Positions 24,646 through 35,234 of a stretch of DNA of 64,000 nucleotides are shown piece by piece. Both the position numbers and the translations under genes were made by a program. The notes beneath the pieces were generated by a model. The model had not been told where the DNA came from. It did not search any database and worked only from the letters and a program-made list of their open reading frames with translations. Within the stretch, counting starts at the first letter, position 1. The number at the start of each line of letters is the position of its first letter. The DNA is from Acidimicrobiales bacterium (GTDB lineage Bacteria; Actinomycetota; Acidimicrobiia; Acidimicrobiales; JAKAVM01). The stretch is taken from assembly GCA_027452005.1 (NCBI GenBank), contig DAIDHF010000011.1, positions 443-64,442 on the forward strand, given 5' to 3'.

Positions 24646-25557
24646 TTGAACAAATATCCTGGTGGCCGGAGTCAAAAGATTGGGATTGTCGGACTTGGTG
24701 CTATTGGGCGTCCGGTAGCTGACAACGTTGCCCGGGCCGGACATCACGTGGTCGTGACTGACAAAGATCCTCGAGCCATTGCCGGTCTTTCAGACCAGGT
24801 GCTTGTAGTCAATAGCGCCCGGGAACTCGGGTTCTTGAGTGAGATCTGCCTGGTATCGGTGGTCAACGAAGCCCAGGTCTTAGATGTAATTTGTGGCCCA
24901 GACGGTATCTTGGCGGCCGACTTGCTCCCAAGGTTCATTGTGGTCCTATCCACAATTTCCCCGACAGTCTTGGAGGACTTATATTCGAAGACGAGAGAGC
25001 GTGGATGTAAGTTGATCGACTGTGCCGTGTCAGGGGGTCCGTCAGCTGCCCACAGTGGTGAGTTGGTTTCAATGGTAGGTGGCGACCGAGAGGACCTGGA
25101 CTCTATAGGGGCTATTGTAGAGTGCTTTTCTAGCCGGGTAATCCATATGGGACCGCTGGGAAGTGGGCTACGTGCAAAGTTAGCCAGAAACCTTATTCAA
25201 TATGGCTCGTGGCTTGCTGCATACGAGGGGCAACTAGTCGCTCAGGCCGCTGGGATACCTCTGGCCAAACTTGCCCTGGCTGTTAGGGAGAGTGACGCCA
25301 AAATTGGTGGGGCATCGGCCCTTATGATTCGTGACACGGCAGATCCATTTGATGAGGGCGACGATCCAGCACTTGTTCAAGCAATGGCTTTAGGATTTGA
25401 ACTCGCAGACAAAGATCTCAGAGCAATTATAGACCTGGGAGACCAACTAGGAGTAGCTACCCCCGTGGCCCGAATGACTCACGATTTTGTATTCCAGATC
25501 TTTGGGGAGCCTTACCTTGGGGGCCGCAGCTCGCCAGAAAGTACGAATCTGCAGTGA
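24646..25557 (+). CDS. NAD(P)-dependent 3-hydroxyisobutyrate/6-phosphogluconate dehydrogenase-like oxidoreductase
   Basis: Rossmann motif 'KIGIVGLGAIGRPVADNVARAGHHVVVTD'. 303 aa, TTG start. Confidence 0.8.
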   Translation: MNKYPGGRSQKIGIVGLGAIGRPVADNVARAGHHVVVTDKDPRAIAGLSDQVLVVNSARELGFLSEICLVSVVNEAQVLDVICGPDGILAADLLPRFIVVLSTISPTVLEDLYSKTRERGCKLIDCAVSGGPSAAHSGELVSMVGGDREDLDSIGAIVECFSSRVIHMGPLGSGLRAKLARNLIQYGSWLAAYEGQLVAQAAGIPLAKLALAVRESDAKIGGASALMIRDTADPFDEGDDPALVQAMALGFELADKDLRAIIDLGDQLGVATPVARMTHDFVFQIFGEPYLGGRSSPESTNLQ

Positions 25558-28305: not shown

Positions 28306-29994
28306 GTGCGTCGTCTTCTAATGGTCGGGTTATTTACCGGGACAACTCTGTGCTGGTTTCTTGTGGGGGCCAACCCGATTGGTATGAACGTGGGCGCCTT
28401 GACCACGCCGAGGTCTCTAACAATTCATCCCGGGGCCGCCTCTACTTTGAGTTCAACCACTACTCAGGCCTCGGGACAGTACTATCTGGCCCTGGGTGAC
28501 TCGTTGGCTTATGGATACCAACCCAACTCTGTCCCGGCAACCCAGGGTTATGTAAATGACACCTACCTGGCCGAGCAGGCCAACTTTCCGGGACTCTCAC
28601 TTGAGAATCTGGGCTGTCCCGGTGAGACAACCACGTCACTAATCTCAGGGGGGATCTGTGCGTATTCGACCGGAAACCAGTTGGCTCAGGCCGAGTCGTT
28701 CTTGTCGGCAAATCCTGGCAAGGTAGCTTTTATCACCCTGGACATTGGGGCTAATGACGTAGATGGTTGTATCGGCTCTTCAGGAATTGACCTGAACTGC
28801 TTTCAGTCTGGCCTCAAGACGGTTGCCAGCAATCTCCCGAAGATTCTTGAAGGACTGAGGTCTTCAGCCGGGCCAAGTGTTCCGATCATCGGGGTCAACT
28901 ACTACGACTCCTTCTTAGGTCTTTGGGTAACCGGGGCAGCAGGTCAGTCCTTTGCCAAACAGTCTCTAGTGGGCCTGGAGATCTTGAATGGGACCATCGA
29001 CAATATATTTGGATCAAACGGGGATCTTGTTTCTGATACGGCTTCAGCTTTTGACACCAACGTAGTGTCCACAACCGATACCTACAACGGCCAGACGGTT
29101 CCCGTTGACGTCTATAACGTGTGCACGCTTACCTGGATGTGTTCTCAGGGCAATATTCACGCCAACACGGCCGGATACAAGGTTATGGCTGACCGCCTTG
29201 AGACGACAATCTCGCAGGCTCTTGGTTCGACTGGTATCAATCAGCCATCAGGTTGGTTGATCACGGGAGCTGGTCAGGTGCTGGGAATAGACCAGACCCC
29301 GACCTACGGGGACCTGACCTCAATTGCTCACAACGGCCCGGTCGTCTCAATTGCCTCCAGCGTTGATCACGCCGGTTACTGGTTGGCAGGTTACCACGGA
29401 GGTGTATTTGCATTCGGCGACGCTCACTTTTATGGATCTGGGTCAGATATAAATCTCGCAGGTCCCGTTGTAGCAATAGCACCATCTGGCGACGGGAACG
29501 GGTACTGGTTGGTAACCTCTCTGGGAGGGGTGTACTCCTTTGGTGATGCTGGCTTTTTTGGTTCTCAGGCGGGGCTGCCCATGTGGGGGACGGTGGCCAG
29601 CTTTGAGCCCACCCCAGACGGGAACGGGTACTGGATGGTGACCACCTTGGGCGAGGTAATAACATTTGGTGACGCTCAAAACTACGGATCTGACTTGGGG
29701 GCGATCGTCGGGACCGTAACCGGGTTTGCATGTACCCCAGACGGGAACGGTTACTGGTTTATTACCTCGGCTGGCTACGTGTACAGTTTTGGCCAGGCCA
29801 CCTACCATGGCGGTCCCGGACCGGGAGTTCAAAATGGCACCCCAGAAATCTACGCGATTGACGCAAGCTATTACCAGGGGGGGTACTGGGCAGTAACGTC
29901 CCAGGGGAACCCGGTAGCCTATGGCCCGGCCCCCAAGCTAATGGCGGTTCAAATACCGCTCCAAACTCCGCTTGTTGGGGCTATGCTTTTCTAA
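28306..29994 (+). CDS. Secreted SGNH/GDSL hydrolase with C-terminal GYW repeats
   Basis: Signal-like N-terminus. SGNH block I '[13 protein letters not shown]' and block III '[10 protein letters not shown]'. From residue ~316 onward the protein consists of GYW repeats. Confidence 0.8.
29251..29991 (+). repeat. About six to seven GYW-type protein repeats (coding)
   Basis: '[14 protein letters not shown]', '[22 protein letters not shown]', '[22 protein letters not shown]', '[22 protein letters not shown]', '[22 protein letters not shown]', '[15 protein letters not shown]'. Confidence 0.8.
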
Positions 29995-30014: not shown

Positions 30015-31130
30015 GTGAGCAAGATAAGGGTTCTGGTTGGGACTAACAAGGGTGGCTTTGTAATTCGAGGTGACGCCAAACGAGACTCTTGGGAGATCTC
30101 TGGCCCGTTTTTCGAGGGTTGGCAGATCTACCATATGAAGGGATCTCCGGTTGACCCGAACAGGATATACGCGTCACAGTCAACCAGTTGGCACGGCCAG
30201 GTCATGCAGCGGTCCAACGACGGTGGTGAGACCTGGGAAACGGTAGGAAACGAGTTTATCTACGACGGGGTTCCCGGTACGCACCAGTGGTATGACGGGA
30301 CTCCTCACCCGTGGGAGTTTGCCCGGGTGTGGCACATCGAACCCTCCCTGGACGACCCGGACACGCTTTATTGTGGGGTCGAAGATGCCGCCCTTTTCGT
30401 CTCTAGAGACGGAGCCAACACCTGGAAGGAGATGTCGGGCTTTCGAGGGCAGGGAACTGGTTCCAGCTGGACACCGGGTGCTGGGGGGATGTGCCTTCAC
30501 ACCATACTTCTTGACCCAGTAAATCAGGACCGGATGTTTGCAGCCGTTTCTTCAGCCGGGGTCTTTAGGTCCGATGATCGAGGTGAGACCTGGAGGCCCA
30601 TTACCAAAGGCATAAGATCTGAGTTCCTCCCAAACCCAGATGCCGAAATCGGCCACTGTGTGCACCGTATAACCATGAACCCGACCAGGCCCGAGGTATT
30701 GTTTATGCAAAAGCACTGGGACGTAATGCGCAGTGACAACGCCGGTGAGTCCTGGTATGAGATAAGTGGAAACCTGCCAACTGACTTTGGGTTTCCAATA
30801 GCGGTAAGTTCAAACGAGCCAGATACGGTTTTTGTGGTCCCGATAACCAGTGATCTATTTCACGTGCCCCCTGAAGGTAAGCTCCGGGTGTACAGGTCTC
30901 AGGTTGGAGGCAACGACTGGGAGCCGCTCACCAAGGGCCTTCCCCAAGAGCACTGTTACGTCAACGTGCTTAGAGATGCCATGGATGTTGACGAGCTAGA
31001 TTCGTGCGGTGTGTACTTTGGGACGACGGGCGGGCAGGTGTTTATGTCTCCGGACTCTGGAGATACCTGGCAGACCCTAGCTCAAAGCCTCCCGTCTGTA
31101 TTGTCAATAGAGGTTCAAACGATCAGGTAG
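30015..31130 (+). CDS. Cytosolic BNR/Asp-box beta-propeller protein (sialidase-fold-like, no signal peptide)
   Basis: GGAGG then GTG 30015. Asp-boxes '[40 protein letters not shown]'. The N-terminus '[20 protein letters not shown]' is not hydrophobic. Confidence 0.8.
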
Positions 31131-31139
31131 GGACCGATT

Positions 31140-31499
31140 TTGGTGCAACCATCCAGAGAGTCCAGTGAGGCCACCACGACCACTGCAGAAGAGGCTTTCC
31201 GAGAAGTAACCGTGTGTTTGCCCGGTCATCTGCGTACGTTGGCCAACGTGGGCAAGTATATTACCTTGGGTGTAACAGACCCGGTTACCCCCAGAAGACT
31301 CCTGGACGTTCTTGAAGAACAACTTCCAAGTCTGAGAGGAACAATACGGGACCATGCCACTGGGTGTCGTCGCGCCTACCTCCGTTTTTACGCCTGCGAA
31401 GAAGACATCTCTCATGACTCCCTTGATGAGCCACTGCCACACGATGTAGTGGCGGGCACGGAACCCTTTATTATCATGGGAGCGGTATCGGGGGGATAA
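31140..31499 (+). CDS. MoaD/ThiS-like beta-grasp (ubiquitin-like) protein ending in Gly-Gly
   Basis: The C-terminus is '...EPFIIMGAVSGG*'. The body 'VTVCLPGHLRTLANVGKYITLGV...LRGTIRDHATGCRRAYLRFYACEEDIS' fits the MoaD/ThiS length and pattern. The start is uncertain: TTG 31140 lies 9 nt after the BNR gene, and GTG 31212 would give a ~95-aa protein. Confidence 0.6.
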   Translation: MVQPSRESSEATTTTAEEAFREVTVCLPGHLRTLANVGKYITLGVTDPVTPRRLLDVLEEQLPSLRGTIRDHATGCRRAYLRFYACEEDISHDSLDEPLPHDVVAGTEPFIIMGAVSGG

Positions 31500-32717: not shown

Positions 32718-35234
32718 ATGATCTCAAGACTCGCCCAAAATTTAATTCAGGCCGTTTTGGTCGCAACCCTTGCCTCTATTGGGACTTTTTGGAGCATTGA
32801 CGCAGGGGCTCAAATGGCCCAGTCGACTCCTCAACTCACCTGGAACTCCCAGAGCTACCCTGGTGGCCAGGTTTTATACTCGGTATCGTGTCCATCTACG
32901 ACTACGTGTACAGCAGTTGGGAAGTCCGGAACAATTGTCGGGACAATAAATGCCGGTGGAACCTGGGTTAAAGAGACCTCGTCAACAACCTCAACCTTAT
33001 ACGGAATCTCGTGCGTGTCAACTTCTGAGTGTGTTGCGGTCGGCGCTGGGGGAACAGTTGTGTTCACAACCAACGCTGGGAACTCGTGGCAGGCCGGACA
33101 GTCAACCCTGACGACTAACCTCGACAGTGTGTCGTGTCCGTCTAGTGGGCAGTGCTGGGCGGTCGGGGCAAGCGGGGTAATTGTCGCATCGGGTGCAAAT
33201 AATGACTCGGGTCCATGGACCGTTCAACAGGTCGGAGGTGCCAACCTATATGGAATATCGTGTATCGATGTAACCGATTGCACCGCTGTCGGATTTGCTG
33301 GAGCGATCTTTGCAACATCTAATGGATCAACCTGGATGCCGGAGGTGTCTGGGGTGACTACTACCTTGAACACCATTAGTTGCGTTACCGCGACCCAATG
33401 TTGGGCAGCCGGTGGGTCACAGGTAATTACCACCCCAAACGGGTCTACCTGGCAAGCAACAGGTGGACTACCCAATGCATCGAGTCTCGAGGGGATTGAT
33501 TGCACAGATTTCCGAAACTGCTGGGTTACAGGGGTCAATCCTGGGACCGTGGATTCAAGCTCTGATGGTGGAGCAAGCTGGATCCAAGAGATGCCCGACA
33601 GCGGCAACTGGTTGAACTCGGTAAGTTGTGCAAATGCCACTCATTGTTGGGCCGTGGGAAATGGAGTAATAATGTCGGGCTTTTCACCACCAAGTGAGGT
33701 AAACCCGACAAGTCCGGTCTATAACGCAGATGCTCCCGATCCAGACGTCGTGTCATACCAGGGGACCTACTATGCCTTTACTACCGGGACCAAAGAGGCC
33801 CCTATAATTCAAATCTTGTCATCTGGCAATCTGGCATCGTGGAACTTGAACGGGAGCGCGTTGAAGAAGATACCCTCTTGGGAAAAGGTGGGAACCCAGG
33901 AGTCACCCGGTGTCTTCTTCTGGGATAACAAGTGGATTATGTACTACGCGGCCATTGAGTCGTCAACGAATACCAGATGTATATCCATGGCTACCTCGAC
34001 ACAGATTTTGGGTCCTTATGTGGACTCGACCTTGGGTCCTTTAGAGTGTGACCCGACTATTGGCGGAGCCCTCGATCCCCAGCCATTTATTGACCCTTCC
34101 GGGACAGCGTATCTGTACTGGAAATCCAACGACGGTCTAAGCGGAGTAAACGCTCAGATCTGGGTTGCCCCAATCAACAATACGGGGCTTCCCGAGGTTG
34201 CCTCGGCGACATCATTGATTACCCAAGACCAACCCGGCACCACCGAGGCCCCATTTATGCAGAGCTATTCAGGAACCTACTACCTGTTCTACTCGATAGG
34301 TAGCTGGGACAGCTCTAACTATGGAGTTGGATACGCTACTTGTTCAACGCCAAGTGGCCCGTGCACTACAACCCAGGTCAATTCGGTTATGTCATCTAAC
34401 TCATACGTACTTGGGCCCGGTAGTGCGTCGGTCGTCACAGATAACTCTGGGCAGCTTTGGTTGGCATATTGTGGTTGGAACGGTCCCACGTCAAAGTTTT
34501 CTTATGCCCAAGGCGACTACAGAAGCCTTTGGATGGCTCAAATGTCGTTTCCGGGAGGAGTTCCAACCTTAGATTTGCAACCACCTCAAGTTGCCCCGGC
34601 TCCTAACGTAACCGGGCTAAGCTCGTCAGTTGGTTCGGCGAGCGGCGGGGCAAGCGTGACTATTTACGGGAGTAATCTATCTGGGGCCATCGGGGTAAGT
34701 TTTGCTAATGCCCCAGCAGAGAGCTTTACGGTAGTTTCTCCTTCGCAGATTTCTGTTGTTACCCCTCCTGGGAGCCCGGGCACGGTTGACGTTACCGTTA
34801 CTACCCCTAATGGAGCAAGTGCAATATCATGCCAAGATCAATATACCTTTACTGAGTCCGGAACTGCGGAGTTAGGGGGATACTGGCTGGTAAGCTCCCT
34901 CGGTAGCGTATATGGGTGCGGGGCCAACTTGGCTCTAGGATCGGCGCCACCCGGGACACAGGGGGTGGTCTCAATATCACCAACAAGTGACGTCCAAGGA
35001 TACTGGCTCGCCAACTCACAGGGGTCCATTTATACTTTCGGCGACGCCTCCTTCTATGGGTCCATGGGGGGCAAGCCACTCAATCAACCCATTGTTGCCA
35101 TGGCGTCTACGGCCGATTCCAAGGGTTACTGGATGGTGGCCTCTGACGGGGGAATCTTCTCCTTCGGCGACGCCTCCTTCTACGGGTCCATGGGGGCTGT
35201 CCCAACTAACGGACCTATCTCGGCGATGGGCTAG
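32718..35234 (+). CDS. Secreted multidomain protein: Cys-pair 7-blade propeller + GH43-like domain + IPT/TIG + GYW repeats
   Basis: Signal peptide. Blades 'SCPSTTTCTAVG, SCVSTSECVAVG, SCPSSGQCWAVG, SCIDVTDCTAVG, SCVTATQCWAAG, DCTDFRNCWVTG, SCANATHCWAVG'. GH43-type motifs 'APDPDVVSYQGTYYAFTT', 'LDPQPFIDPSGTAYLYW', 'TEAPFMQSYSGTYYLFYS'. IPT-like 'GGASVTIYGSNLSG...VVTPPGSPGTVDVTVTTPNG'. Confidence 0.8.
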   Translation: MISRLAQNLIQAVLVATLASIGTFWSIDAGAQMAQSTPQLTWNSQSYPGGQVLYSVSCPSTTTCTAVGKSGTIVGTINAGGTWVKETSSTTSTLYGISCVSTSECVAVGAGGTVVFTTNAGNSWQAGQSTLTTNLDSVSCPSSGQCWAVGASGVIVASGANNDSGPWTVQQVGGANLYGISCIDVTDCTAVGFAGAIFATSNGSTWMPEVSGVTTTLNTISCVTATQCWAAGGSQVITTPNGSTWQATGGLPNASSLEGIDCTDFRNCWVTGVNPGTVDSSSDGGASWIQEMPDSGNWLNSVSCANATHCWAVGNGVIMSGFSPPSEVNPTSPVYNADAPDPDVVSYQGTYYAFTTGTKEAPIIQILSSGNLASWNLNGSALKKIPSWEKVGTQESPGVFFWDNKWIMYYAAIESSTNTRCISMATSTQILGPYVDSTLGPLECDPTIGGALDPQPFIDPSGTAYLYWKSNDGLSGVNAQIWVAPINNTGLPEVASATSLITQDQPGTTEAPFMQSYSGTYYLFYSIGSWDSSNYGVGYATCSTPSGPCTTTQVNSVMSSNSYVLGPGSASVVTDNSGQLWLAYCGWNGPTSKFSYAQGDYRSLWMAQMSFPGGVPTLDLQPPQVAPAPNVTGLSSSVGSASGGASVTIYGSNLSGAIGVSFANAPAESFTVVSPSQISVVTPPGSPGTVDVTVTTPNGASAISCQDQYTFTESGTAELGGYWLVSSLGSVYGCGANLALGSAPPGTQGVVSISPTSDVQGYWLANSQGSIYTFGDASFYGSMGGKPLNQPIVAMASTADSKGYWMVASDGGIFSFGDASFYGSMGAVPTNGPISAMG
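34875..35231 (+). repeat. Three GYW-type repeats (coding), including a 34-nt near-identical duplication (35037-35070 and 35163-35196, 1 mismatch, 126 nt apart)
   Basis: 'GGYWLVSSLGSVYGCGANLALGS', 'GYWLANSQGSIYTFGDASFYGSMGG', 'GYWMVASDGGIFSFGDASFYGSMGA'. Confidence 0.85.

Follow-up and report, generated by a model that had tools for sequence, protein, structure and literature searches.

Proteins of the MoaD, ThiS and ubiquitin-like (Ubl) type use a terminal Gly-Gly (GG) for adenylation, thiocarboxylation or conjugation, and they normally work with an E1-like enzyme of the MoeB/ThiF type. To our knowledge, each of the characterised GG beta-grasp carriers (ThiS, MoaD, CysO, QbsE, TtuB, the SAMPs and Urm1) has led to a distinct sulfur or conjugation chemistry. 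Here we describe a gene pair from a 64,000-nucleotide stretch of an Acidimicrobiales genome (contig DAIDHF010000011.1, positions 443 to 64,442; this whole stretch is called the window below), in which the gene of an Asp-box beta-propeller is followed on the same strand by the gene of a small protein with a free C-terminal GG. The pair suggests that a protein of the sulfur-carrier type has a partner enzyme which has not been studied so far.

The closest described systems are CysO-CysM of Mycobacterium tuberculosis and CysO-BexX of Amycolatopsis, which likewise have a beta-grasp carrier of about 90 amino acids (aa) with a GG end. As in these systems, a MoeZ-type rhodanese-E1 encoded elsewhere would activate the carrier for a dedicated acceptor enzyme; in actinomycetes, MoeZ activates both CysO and MoaD. 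Unlike in the CysO systems, the acceptor would be a seven-bladed Asp-box propeller and not a pyridoxal phosphate enzyme or a ThiG-like TIM barrel, no Mec-type JAMM gene stands beside the pair, and a separate CysO-like gene with a JAMM gene is found on another contig. A small GG beta-grasp protein encoded beside its acceptor subunit, often with translational coupling, is also known from MoaD-MoaE, in which the MoaD tail inserts into the acceptor active site. The partner in our pair is not MoaE, however, and MoaE is encoded together with a MoaD-like gene on another contig.

In Thermus thermophilus, the GG carrier TtuB has a dedicated acceptor, TtuA, which receives the thiocarboxylate at a metal (iron-sulfur, Fe-S) site, and TtuC is a single unlinked E1 that serves several carriers, MoaD and ThiS among them. 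Unlike TtuA, which is a PP-loop ATPase acting on tRNA, the window pair carries no pointer to tRNA, and its proposed metal site is His-rich. SAMP1 (Haloferax volcanii, Methanosarcina) and Urm1 share the GG terminus with the small protein and are structurally close to it (3po0, 2l52 and 4hro, target-normalised template modelling (TM) score 0.74-0.86), and they are a precedent for one protein acting as both sulfur carrier and modifier through an unlinked E1. However, the sequence identity is only 15-22 %, and SAMP and Urm1 have no propeller partner. For the propeller, the relevant structure is 3B7F. Both are single domains and full-length homologues, but 3B7F lies in a more distant branch and has Asp instead of Cys215.

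GG carriers themselves are known; what is new is the type of partner that accompanies this one. When the published literature was searched, no paper linking the 3B7F propeller family to a beta-grasp protein was found. With a probability of about 0.45, we prefer to read the small protein as a dedicated sulfur carrier, which would be charged by a shared E1 and would serve the propeller, a putative metal-dependent enzyme.

Conservation of the gene pair

When 401 genomes drawn evenly from the phylum of the window were searched, a strong match to the small gene (E-value below 1e-25) was found in 27 genomes, and in all 27 the propeller gene was directly upstream on the same strand. The propellers of these genomes showed 58-70 % identity, with aligned regions 2-56 nt from the small gene. 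Conversely, all propellers of the sample with at least 58 % identity preceded the small gene, with one exception that was cut by a contig end.

A pattern scan of species-representative genomes gave 80 loci from about ten phyla, including Acidobacteriota, Nitrospirota, Planctomycetota, Chloroflexota, Armatimonadota, Verrucomicrobiota, Eremiobacterota, Rokubacteria and Rhodothermales. Actinomycetota were represented by Dactylosporangium, Amycolatopsis, Pseudonocardia and Nocardioidaceae. The propeller gene was upstream on the same strand in 72 of the 80 loci (60-72 % identity), and about 30 of these 72 had a 4-nt ATGA overlap, which is typical of translational coupling. In five loci the propeller gene was missing from the surrounding 8 kb, but each of these genomes has a member of the close propeller subfamily elsewhere (66-69 % identity). 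In two further loci the upstream sequence was too short to judge. At the genome level, co-occurrence was complete in all genomes tested. The distance matrices of the two proteins were also correlated (Mantel r = 0.58), a value reached by none of 2000 permutations.

The pairing is far beyond chance, and we regard it as close to certain that both genes belong to a single functional module. This had been proposed in the original prediction, made from the sequence of the window only, and the module is supported by the co-occurrence, by the predicted beta-grasp fold of the small protein and by its being distinct from the ordinary MoaD (see below). A neighbourhood survey had been suggested there as the check, and conserved co-occurrence is what both surveys returned. 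The same prediction tentatively suggested that the adjacency recurs in actinobacteria; this holds in Dactylosporangium, Amycolatopsis and Pseudonocardia, although the distribution is far broader than actinobacteria.

The database names of the two proteins ("exo-alpha-sialidase" or "glycosyl hydrolase BNR repeat", and "molybdopterin synthase sulfur carrier subunit") would allow quite another reading, namely that a sialidase or glycoside hydrolase of a glycan locus lies by chance next to a spare MoaD. The pair does have the gene of a GDSL esterase on one side and those of two glycoside hydrolases on the other, and only 9-20 nt separate it from the adjoining genes. This reading is contradicted by the co-occurrence data, as the adjacency extends over the 72 loci and the glycan genes of the window recur in none of them. 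In addition, the propeller has no signal peptide while the neighbours look secreted, it is a single propeller and not a GH74 double, its Pfam BNR_2 score is 17.0 bits against a cut-off of 31.4 bits, and the MoaE of this genome has its own MoaD-like gene elsewhere. The pair does sit among glycan enzymes, as had been remarked earlier, but because glycan genes recur in none of the related loci, this context is considered incidental and local.

Linkage of the two genes is not always tight. In about 17 loci, mostly from Acidobacteriota, 0.5-2.1 kb of unrelated cargo is inserted between the propeller and the small gene, for example a SnoaL-like lipoprotein, RibD_C, VapBC/PIN, an aldo-keto reductase (AKR), PhnB or a CPBP protease. 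Loci with inserted genes from Acidobacteriota and Planctomycetota include L019-L022, L025-L027, L030, L036, L040, L048, L049, L051 and L067. The junction between the two genes seems to be an insertion hot spot.

Within the order of the window, a strong match to the small gene was found in 4 of 31 genomes, the genome of the window included, and the nearest relatives of both proteins are in other phyla. Because of this patchy distribution and of the closest relatives lying in other phyla, the pair appears to behave as a mobile accessory unit. When a plasmid collection was searched, the small protein was unmatched; only distant propellers were found, and the three regions inspected had no MoaD-like neighbour.

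Among 20 distant propellers (31-44 % identity), seven adjoin a more canonical MoaD-like open reading frame (ORF) that ends in SGG, TGG or AGG. This ORF is located either downstream or upstream of the propeller gene.

The small Gly-Gly protein

Homologues of the small protein form 5482 clusters at 90 % identity; their usual length is 98 aa, and even between phyla they share about 60 % identity. Conserved motifs include LPxHLRTLA, GTIRDH, RRxxLRFxAC, PLP and the terminal GAxxGG, all of these invariant, as well as ExP. The GG is invariant in the 96 aligned proteins, and the stop codon directly follows it in 78 of the 80 loci; the two remaining ORFs have 2-3 residues beyond the GG. So strict a retention of a free diglycine is a probable signature of C-terminal carboxylate chemistry.

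When the protein was modelled with AlphaFold2 (AF2) from 96 sequences, a beta-grasp fold was obtained, in agreement with the original prediction. The core had a predicted local distance difference test (pLDDT) score of 86-91, and confidence was low in a 21-residue N-terminal extension and in the last three residues. The best Foldseek matches of the model were SAMP1 (3po0, 2l52, 4hro), CysO (4n6e_B, 3dwg_C), MoaD (6jc0, 5mpo) and Urm1, with a probability of 1.00 and target-normalised TM scores of 0.7-0.86. A profile search of the Protein Data Bank (PDB) sequences with the small protein found no carrier proteins.

Other carriers and the E1 enzyme in the genome

The genome of the window (3.2 Mb, 94 % complete) has four canonical ThiS/MoaD-family genes on other contigs in a PF02597 genome scan, by which the small ORF of the window was not matched. 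One of the four lies near the MoaE gene on contig C15 and one beside the only JAMM peptidase (Prok-JAB) gene of the genome on contig C2, in a CysO/Mec-like arrangement. Since these four genes, MoaE and JAMM are all on other contigs, the small ORF encodes one more GG protein, the fifth of the genome, and is distinct from the ordinary MoaD, an identity that the original prediction had named as fatal to its own proposal. Two specific assignments were rejected on the same data. MoaD proper is excluded by the joint location of MoaE and a ThiS-family gene on C15, with no MoaE within 8 kb of the pair loci, and CysO proper by the adjacency of the only Prok-JAB gene to a different ThiS-family gene.

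A whole-genome search for E1-like and JAMM genes, which had also been recommended, gave one rhodanese-ThiF E1 (contig C5) and the one JAMM peptidase on C2, both unlinked to the pair. In the E1, the rhodanese domain (residues 53-132) precedes the ThiF domain (residues 151-386); MoeZ/MoeBR proteins have the opposite order. Of the 26 other pair-bearing genomes, 25 have a rhodanese-ThiF E1 and 21 of them exactly one, and the genome without an E1 match is 91 % complete. The E1 gene is mostly on a contig other than that of the pair, and in single-contig genomes it is at least 250 kb away. No homologue of E1, JAMM or MoaE was found when the 8 kb around each of the 80 loci and the 3 kb around each of the 20 distant propeller genes were searched. 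As the E1 is never linked to the pair, the GG end, if it is activated, must be activated by the housekeeping E1.

The window itself contains no E1-like, JAMM or MoaE gene, as had been noted before, and all MoaE and JAMM matches are on other contigs. A single sub-threshold ThiF-like match (E-value 6e-4, 19.9 bits, profile positions 19-65) was observed at 24667-24804 (C11:25109-25246), about 5 kb upstream of the pair. It falls within an open frame of 310 aa located upstream of the gene for the aldehyde dehydrogenase. It is probably a shared dinucleotide-binding motif rather than an E1.

The propeller protein

The propeller belongs to the 3B7F or "YP_299179.1" family by full-length sequence and structure similarity. 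PDB entry 3B7F (Reut_B4987, YP_299179.1, of Ralstonia eutropha JMP134; a structural-genomics entry labelled "glycosyl hydrolase, BNR repeat") is a full-length homologue (phmmer E-value 1.7e-63, residues 4-366). The AF2 model aligned to it with a TM score of 0.90, a Foldseek E-value of 1.1e-34 and 34 % identity over the structural alignment. The next best structures were single halves of GH74 xyloglucanases, dispase autolysis-inducing protein (DAIP), Ycf48 and sortilin. 3B7F is the sole structure of the "YP_299179.1 family" of seven-bladed Asp-box propellers, for which no function was given (Quistgaard & Thirup 2009, PMC2716378). Asp-boxes mark the bottom face of the propeller (PMC2716378).

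Four strict Asp-boxes (S-x-[DN]-x-G-x-x-W) are present at residues 67, 186, 240 and 345, compared with 0.05 expected in shuffled sequences, and two degenerate ones at residues 130 (SRDGANTW) and 295 (SQVGGNDW), so the earlier count of five was about right. The absence of a signal peptide was also borne out; the N-terminus of the protein is the first beta-strand, as in 3B7F. The term "sialidase fold" was not appropriate, as the propeller is 3B7F/GH74/Ycf48-like and the family is described as seven-bladed, not six-bladed. A GH33 sialidase was rejected on the BNR_2 score given above and on the absence of sialidases from the top 50 structures. A GH74 xyloglucanase was ruled out because GH74 enzymes need two propellers; GH74 chains have 685-776 residues, of which one half aligned with the 371-aa single propeller (target-normalised TM score 0.21-0.35).

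Polar residues kept throughout the family outside the Asp-boxes are K12, H162, C215, H217, Q232, H234, R239, R320 and D326. Position 215 is Cys in the window and Asp in 3B7F and some other propellers. The close subfamily has further invariant residues (C314, C331, H40, H90, H107, H214 and H283).

Three distant propellers were found in other settings. In P0136 (704 aa), an N-terminal Ser/Thr protein kinase is fused to a distant propeller (41 % identity), apparently without an intervening membrane segment, which suggests that the propeller can serve as a cytosolic sensor or binding domain. Distant propeller genes are also present on a Fuscovulum plasmid (NZ_CP124537.1, L118) and a Rhodobacter plasmid (NZ_CP023549.1, L119), on one of them beside the genes of an SCO-family protein and a multicopper oxidase and on the other beside egtB-egtD (ergothioneine synthesis); neither has a MoaD-like neighbour. 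The two plasmid contexts are anecdotal hints at copper or sulfur chemistry.

Proposed mechanism and alternatives

In the mechanism that we propose, the small protein would be a dedicated sulfur carrier of the SAMP1/CysO/MoaD-like type. Its Gly-Gly carboxylate would be adenylated and then thiocarboxylated by the single, unlinked rhodanese-ThiF (MoeZ-type) E1 of the genome, an enzyme that the small protein would share with its canonical paralogues (MoaD, ThiS and CysO). Once charged, the carrier would dock on the propeller as its acceptor enzyme. The active site of the latter would be the family-wide cluster of His162, Cys or Asp215, His217 and His234, acting as a metal site, and the propeller would spend the thiocarboxylate sulfur on a small-molecule substrate, in parallel to CysO-CysM, MoaD-MoaE and TtuB-TtuA. 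In the AF2 model, the innermost strands of two adjacent blades begin with H162 and with C215/H217, and H234 is in a B-C turn; by the usual propeller topology, this would place the four residues on the top face, close to the central channel. An Fe-S cluster on C215, C314 and C331 was considered as well, but it was not retained as a general mechanism, since distant propellers that pair with MoaD-like genes lack C314 and C331.

Several results weigh against this mechanism. When all ORFs within 8 kb of the pair were clustered over the 80 loci, no third gene exceeded 10 loci, antisense low-complexity noise made up the largest cluster, and no conserved substrate-related gene was found in this range. 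Instead, the neighbours are a changing mix (HxlR, a SigJ-like ECF sigma factor with YCII, PhnB/VOC, DUF1579 and SDR proteins), with DinB proteins near the pair in some related contigs. The small protein has no match to Pfam, the ThiS/MoaD family PF02597 included, or to any NCBIfam model. The putative mononuclear metal or active site is probable from conservation and strand positions only, and the relatives of the propeller include the non-enzymes Ycf48, sortilin and DAIP.

Confident docking was not predicted either, when a read-through pseudo-fusion of the two proteins was modelled with AF2 from an essentially unpaired alignment (natural 25-residue linker, block alignment of 105 rows, of which three were paired). 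Both domains were confident, the predicted TM (pTM) score of 0.71 was about the share of the propeller alone, and the pLDDT of the GG tail was below 50. With so few paired rows, this result counts only weakly against docking. A natural propeller/beta-grasp fusion was not found among the top hits when the read-through was used as query against 1.84 billion representative proteins.

Some long, fusion-like proteins (P0124, P0130, P0133, P0192 and P0248) were rejected as frameshift-garbled translations that span both genes. Such predictions contain Arg/Pro-rich out-of-frame stretches, probably come from error-prone assemblies and could mislead surveys of domain architecture. When four in-frame loci were read through, a stop codon was present between the two genes in all four.

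Part of the same evidence would fit a permanent non-covalent subunit, structural or regulatory, or a chaperone. This would be a beta-grasp protein which is never adenylated and whose C-terminal carboxylate plugs or ligates the channel or metal site of the propeller. The lack of a Pfam ThiS/MoaD match, the absence of a dedicated E1, E2 or JAMM linked to the pair and the peptide-binding, non-catalytic nature of Ycf48, sortilin and DAIP are in line with it, as are the strict co-occurrence and co-evolution of the two proteins. Conservation over the whole surface of the small protein, at about 60 % identity across phyla and with many invariant Arg, His and Cys residues, also fits a tight interface. 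However, the exact C-terminal GG is a hallmark of carboxylate activation for which a structural subunit has no obvious need, and the tail was undocked in the pseudo-fusion model. Furthermore, the insertions in about 17 loci and the unlinked pairs in five genomes mean that strict co-translation is not required. We regard such a role as rather unlikely, although it ranks next after the sulfur carrier.

The small protein may also be a modifier of the SAMP/Urm1/TtuB type, with its GG isopeptide-bonded to target lysines and the propeller as main target or recruiting adaptor; in a sulfur variant, transfer to cysteines may be possible, as in Urm1-Ahp1. The closest structures, SAMP1 and Urm1, are those of proteins that act as both carrier and modifier, C215, C314 and C331 are invariant in the close propeller subfamily, and the kinase fusion suggests a binding or sensor role. 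Neighbours of a stress or electrophile type are frequent as well (HxlR, DinB, VOC, and YCII with an ECF sigma factor), as in the window (CMD/AhpD-like protein, SDR and aldehyde dehydrogenase). Against this, no linked E2, E3 or deconjugating JAMM was found in 100 loci, and C314 and C331 are lost in the distant propellers with MoaD-like neighbours. Neither protein matched the PADLOC defence models, known bacterial Ubl systems included, and the arrangement is not that of a Bil/Bub-type Ubl operon. Such conjugation is also rare in bacteria. We consider this role improbable, and less likely than the non-covalent subunit.

In the most far-reaching reading, the 3B7F propeller could represent a new acceptor class for protein thiocarboxylates, either a metal-dependent sulfur-inserting enzyme or a persulfide/Ubl-conjugation platform, with its own co-evolving GG carrier and a shared MoeZ-type E1. 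This assignment is put forward tentatively, at somewhat less than even odds.

Gene organisation and start codon of the small gene

When the sequence was re-read, the two ORFs, the 9-nt gap between them and the IIMGAVSGG end of the small ORF were as originally described (Table 1). Both ORFs are in the same reading frame, and only the TAG stop and three codons lie between them.

Table 1 Features of the gene pair and of related genes on other contigs. Positions without a contig name are those of the window
Feature	Position	Strand	Remarks
Propeller gene	30015..31130	+	GTG start, TAG stop, 371 aa
Propeller TAG stop and 9-nt spacer	31128..31139	+	AGGTAGGGA Shine-Dalgarno-like, 6 nt ahead of TTG
Small ORF, long form	31140..31499	+	TTG start, 119 aa, C-terminus ...IIMGAVSGG-stop
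Conserved beta-grasp core (predicted)	31203..31496	+	matches 98-aa proteins of relatives; alignments, AF2, Foldseek
Alternative GTG start of small ORF	31212..31214	+	
Terminal Gly-Gly codons and stop	31491..31499	+	GGG GGA TAA
GDSL esterase	28306-29994		directly upstream of propeller; probably secreted
GH43-TIG protein	32718-35234		downstream of pair; probably secreted
MoaE gene	C15:53671-53997		about 2.5 kb from ThiS-family gene
ThiS-family gene near MoaE	C15:50930-51151		
JAMM peptidase (Prok-JAB)	C2:103679-104041		only one in the genome; CysO/Mec-like arrangement
ThiS-family gene beside JAMM peptidase	C2:104275-104535		
ThiF-family E1 (rhodanese and ThiF)	C5:45840-46547 (L001:1432-2658)	-	409 aa; single strong match of the genome

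The only in-frame start codons of the small ORF are TTG 31140, GTG 31143 and GTG 31212. In relatives, the small gene begins with M-I-R-V and its start codon overlaps the propeller stop. In the window, the distance between the propeller stop and the conserved core is about 70 nt, and the sequence at the ancestral start position is GAA GTA ACC. As the core begins at about 31203, the TTG 31140 form carries an extension of 21 aa (residues 1-21), which is predicted to be disordered and is missing from most relatives; a start at GTG 31143 would give a disordered extension of 20 aa. The AGGTAGGGA stretch is just upstream of both codons. A start at GTG 31212 would cost three residues of beta-strand 1, the counterparts of M-I-R in the relatives. 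The long form is favoured over GTG 31212, since it would keep strand 1 intact and N-terminal extensions are present in other homologues.

In another genome of the same genus (L120, G406:C41), the two genes overlap by 4 nt (GTGA) and the small protein has no N-terminal extension; it terminates in GGS followed by the stop. The propeller genes of the two same-genus genomes share only about 72 % DNA identity.

Upstream of the pair, the window encodes an aldehyde dehydrogenase (by sequence similarity), a CMD/AhpD-like protein and an SDR, and downstream of the small ORF a glycoside hydrolase and the GH43-TIG protein. The genes flanking the pair have hydrophobic N-termini. Both the GDSL esterase and the GH43-TIG protein carry C-terminal repeat units of the type "...GYWLV..DGG.F.FGDA.FYGS...". 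A promoter and terminator scan gave no signal exceeding shuffled controls.

Significance of the pair

With its roughly 5,500 clusters (90 % identity), the family of the small protein is large. The obligate partner of this family is a propeller type of which a structure has been solved (3B7F) but to which no function has been assigned. Propellers of the 3B7F type are routinely mislabelled as "exo-alpha-sialidase" or "glycosyl hydrolase". Solving the pair would give a function to a structural-genomics orphan and correct a widespread annotation error, and it might bring to light a new metabolite that contains sulfur or a ubiquitin-like modification in bacteria. The hypothesis is directly testable, since only two small soluble proteins and an E1 of a known type are needed. 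If it is true, soil and freshwater bacteria from about ten phyla would possess a sulfur-transfer pathway that has so far gone unrecognised.

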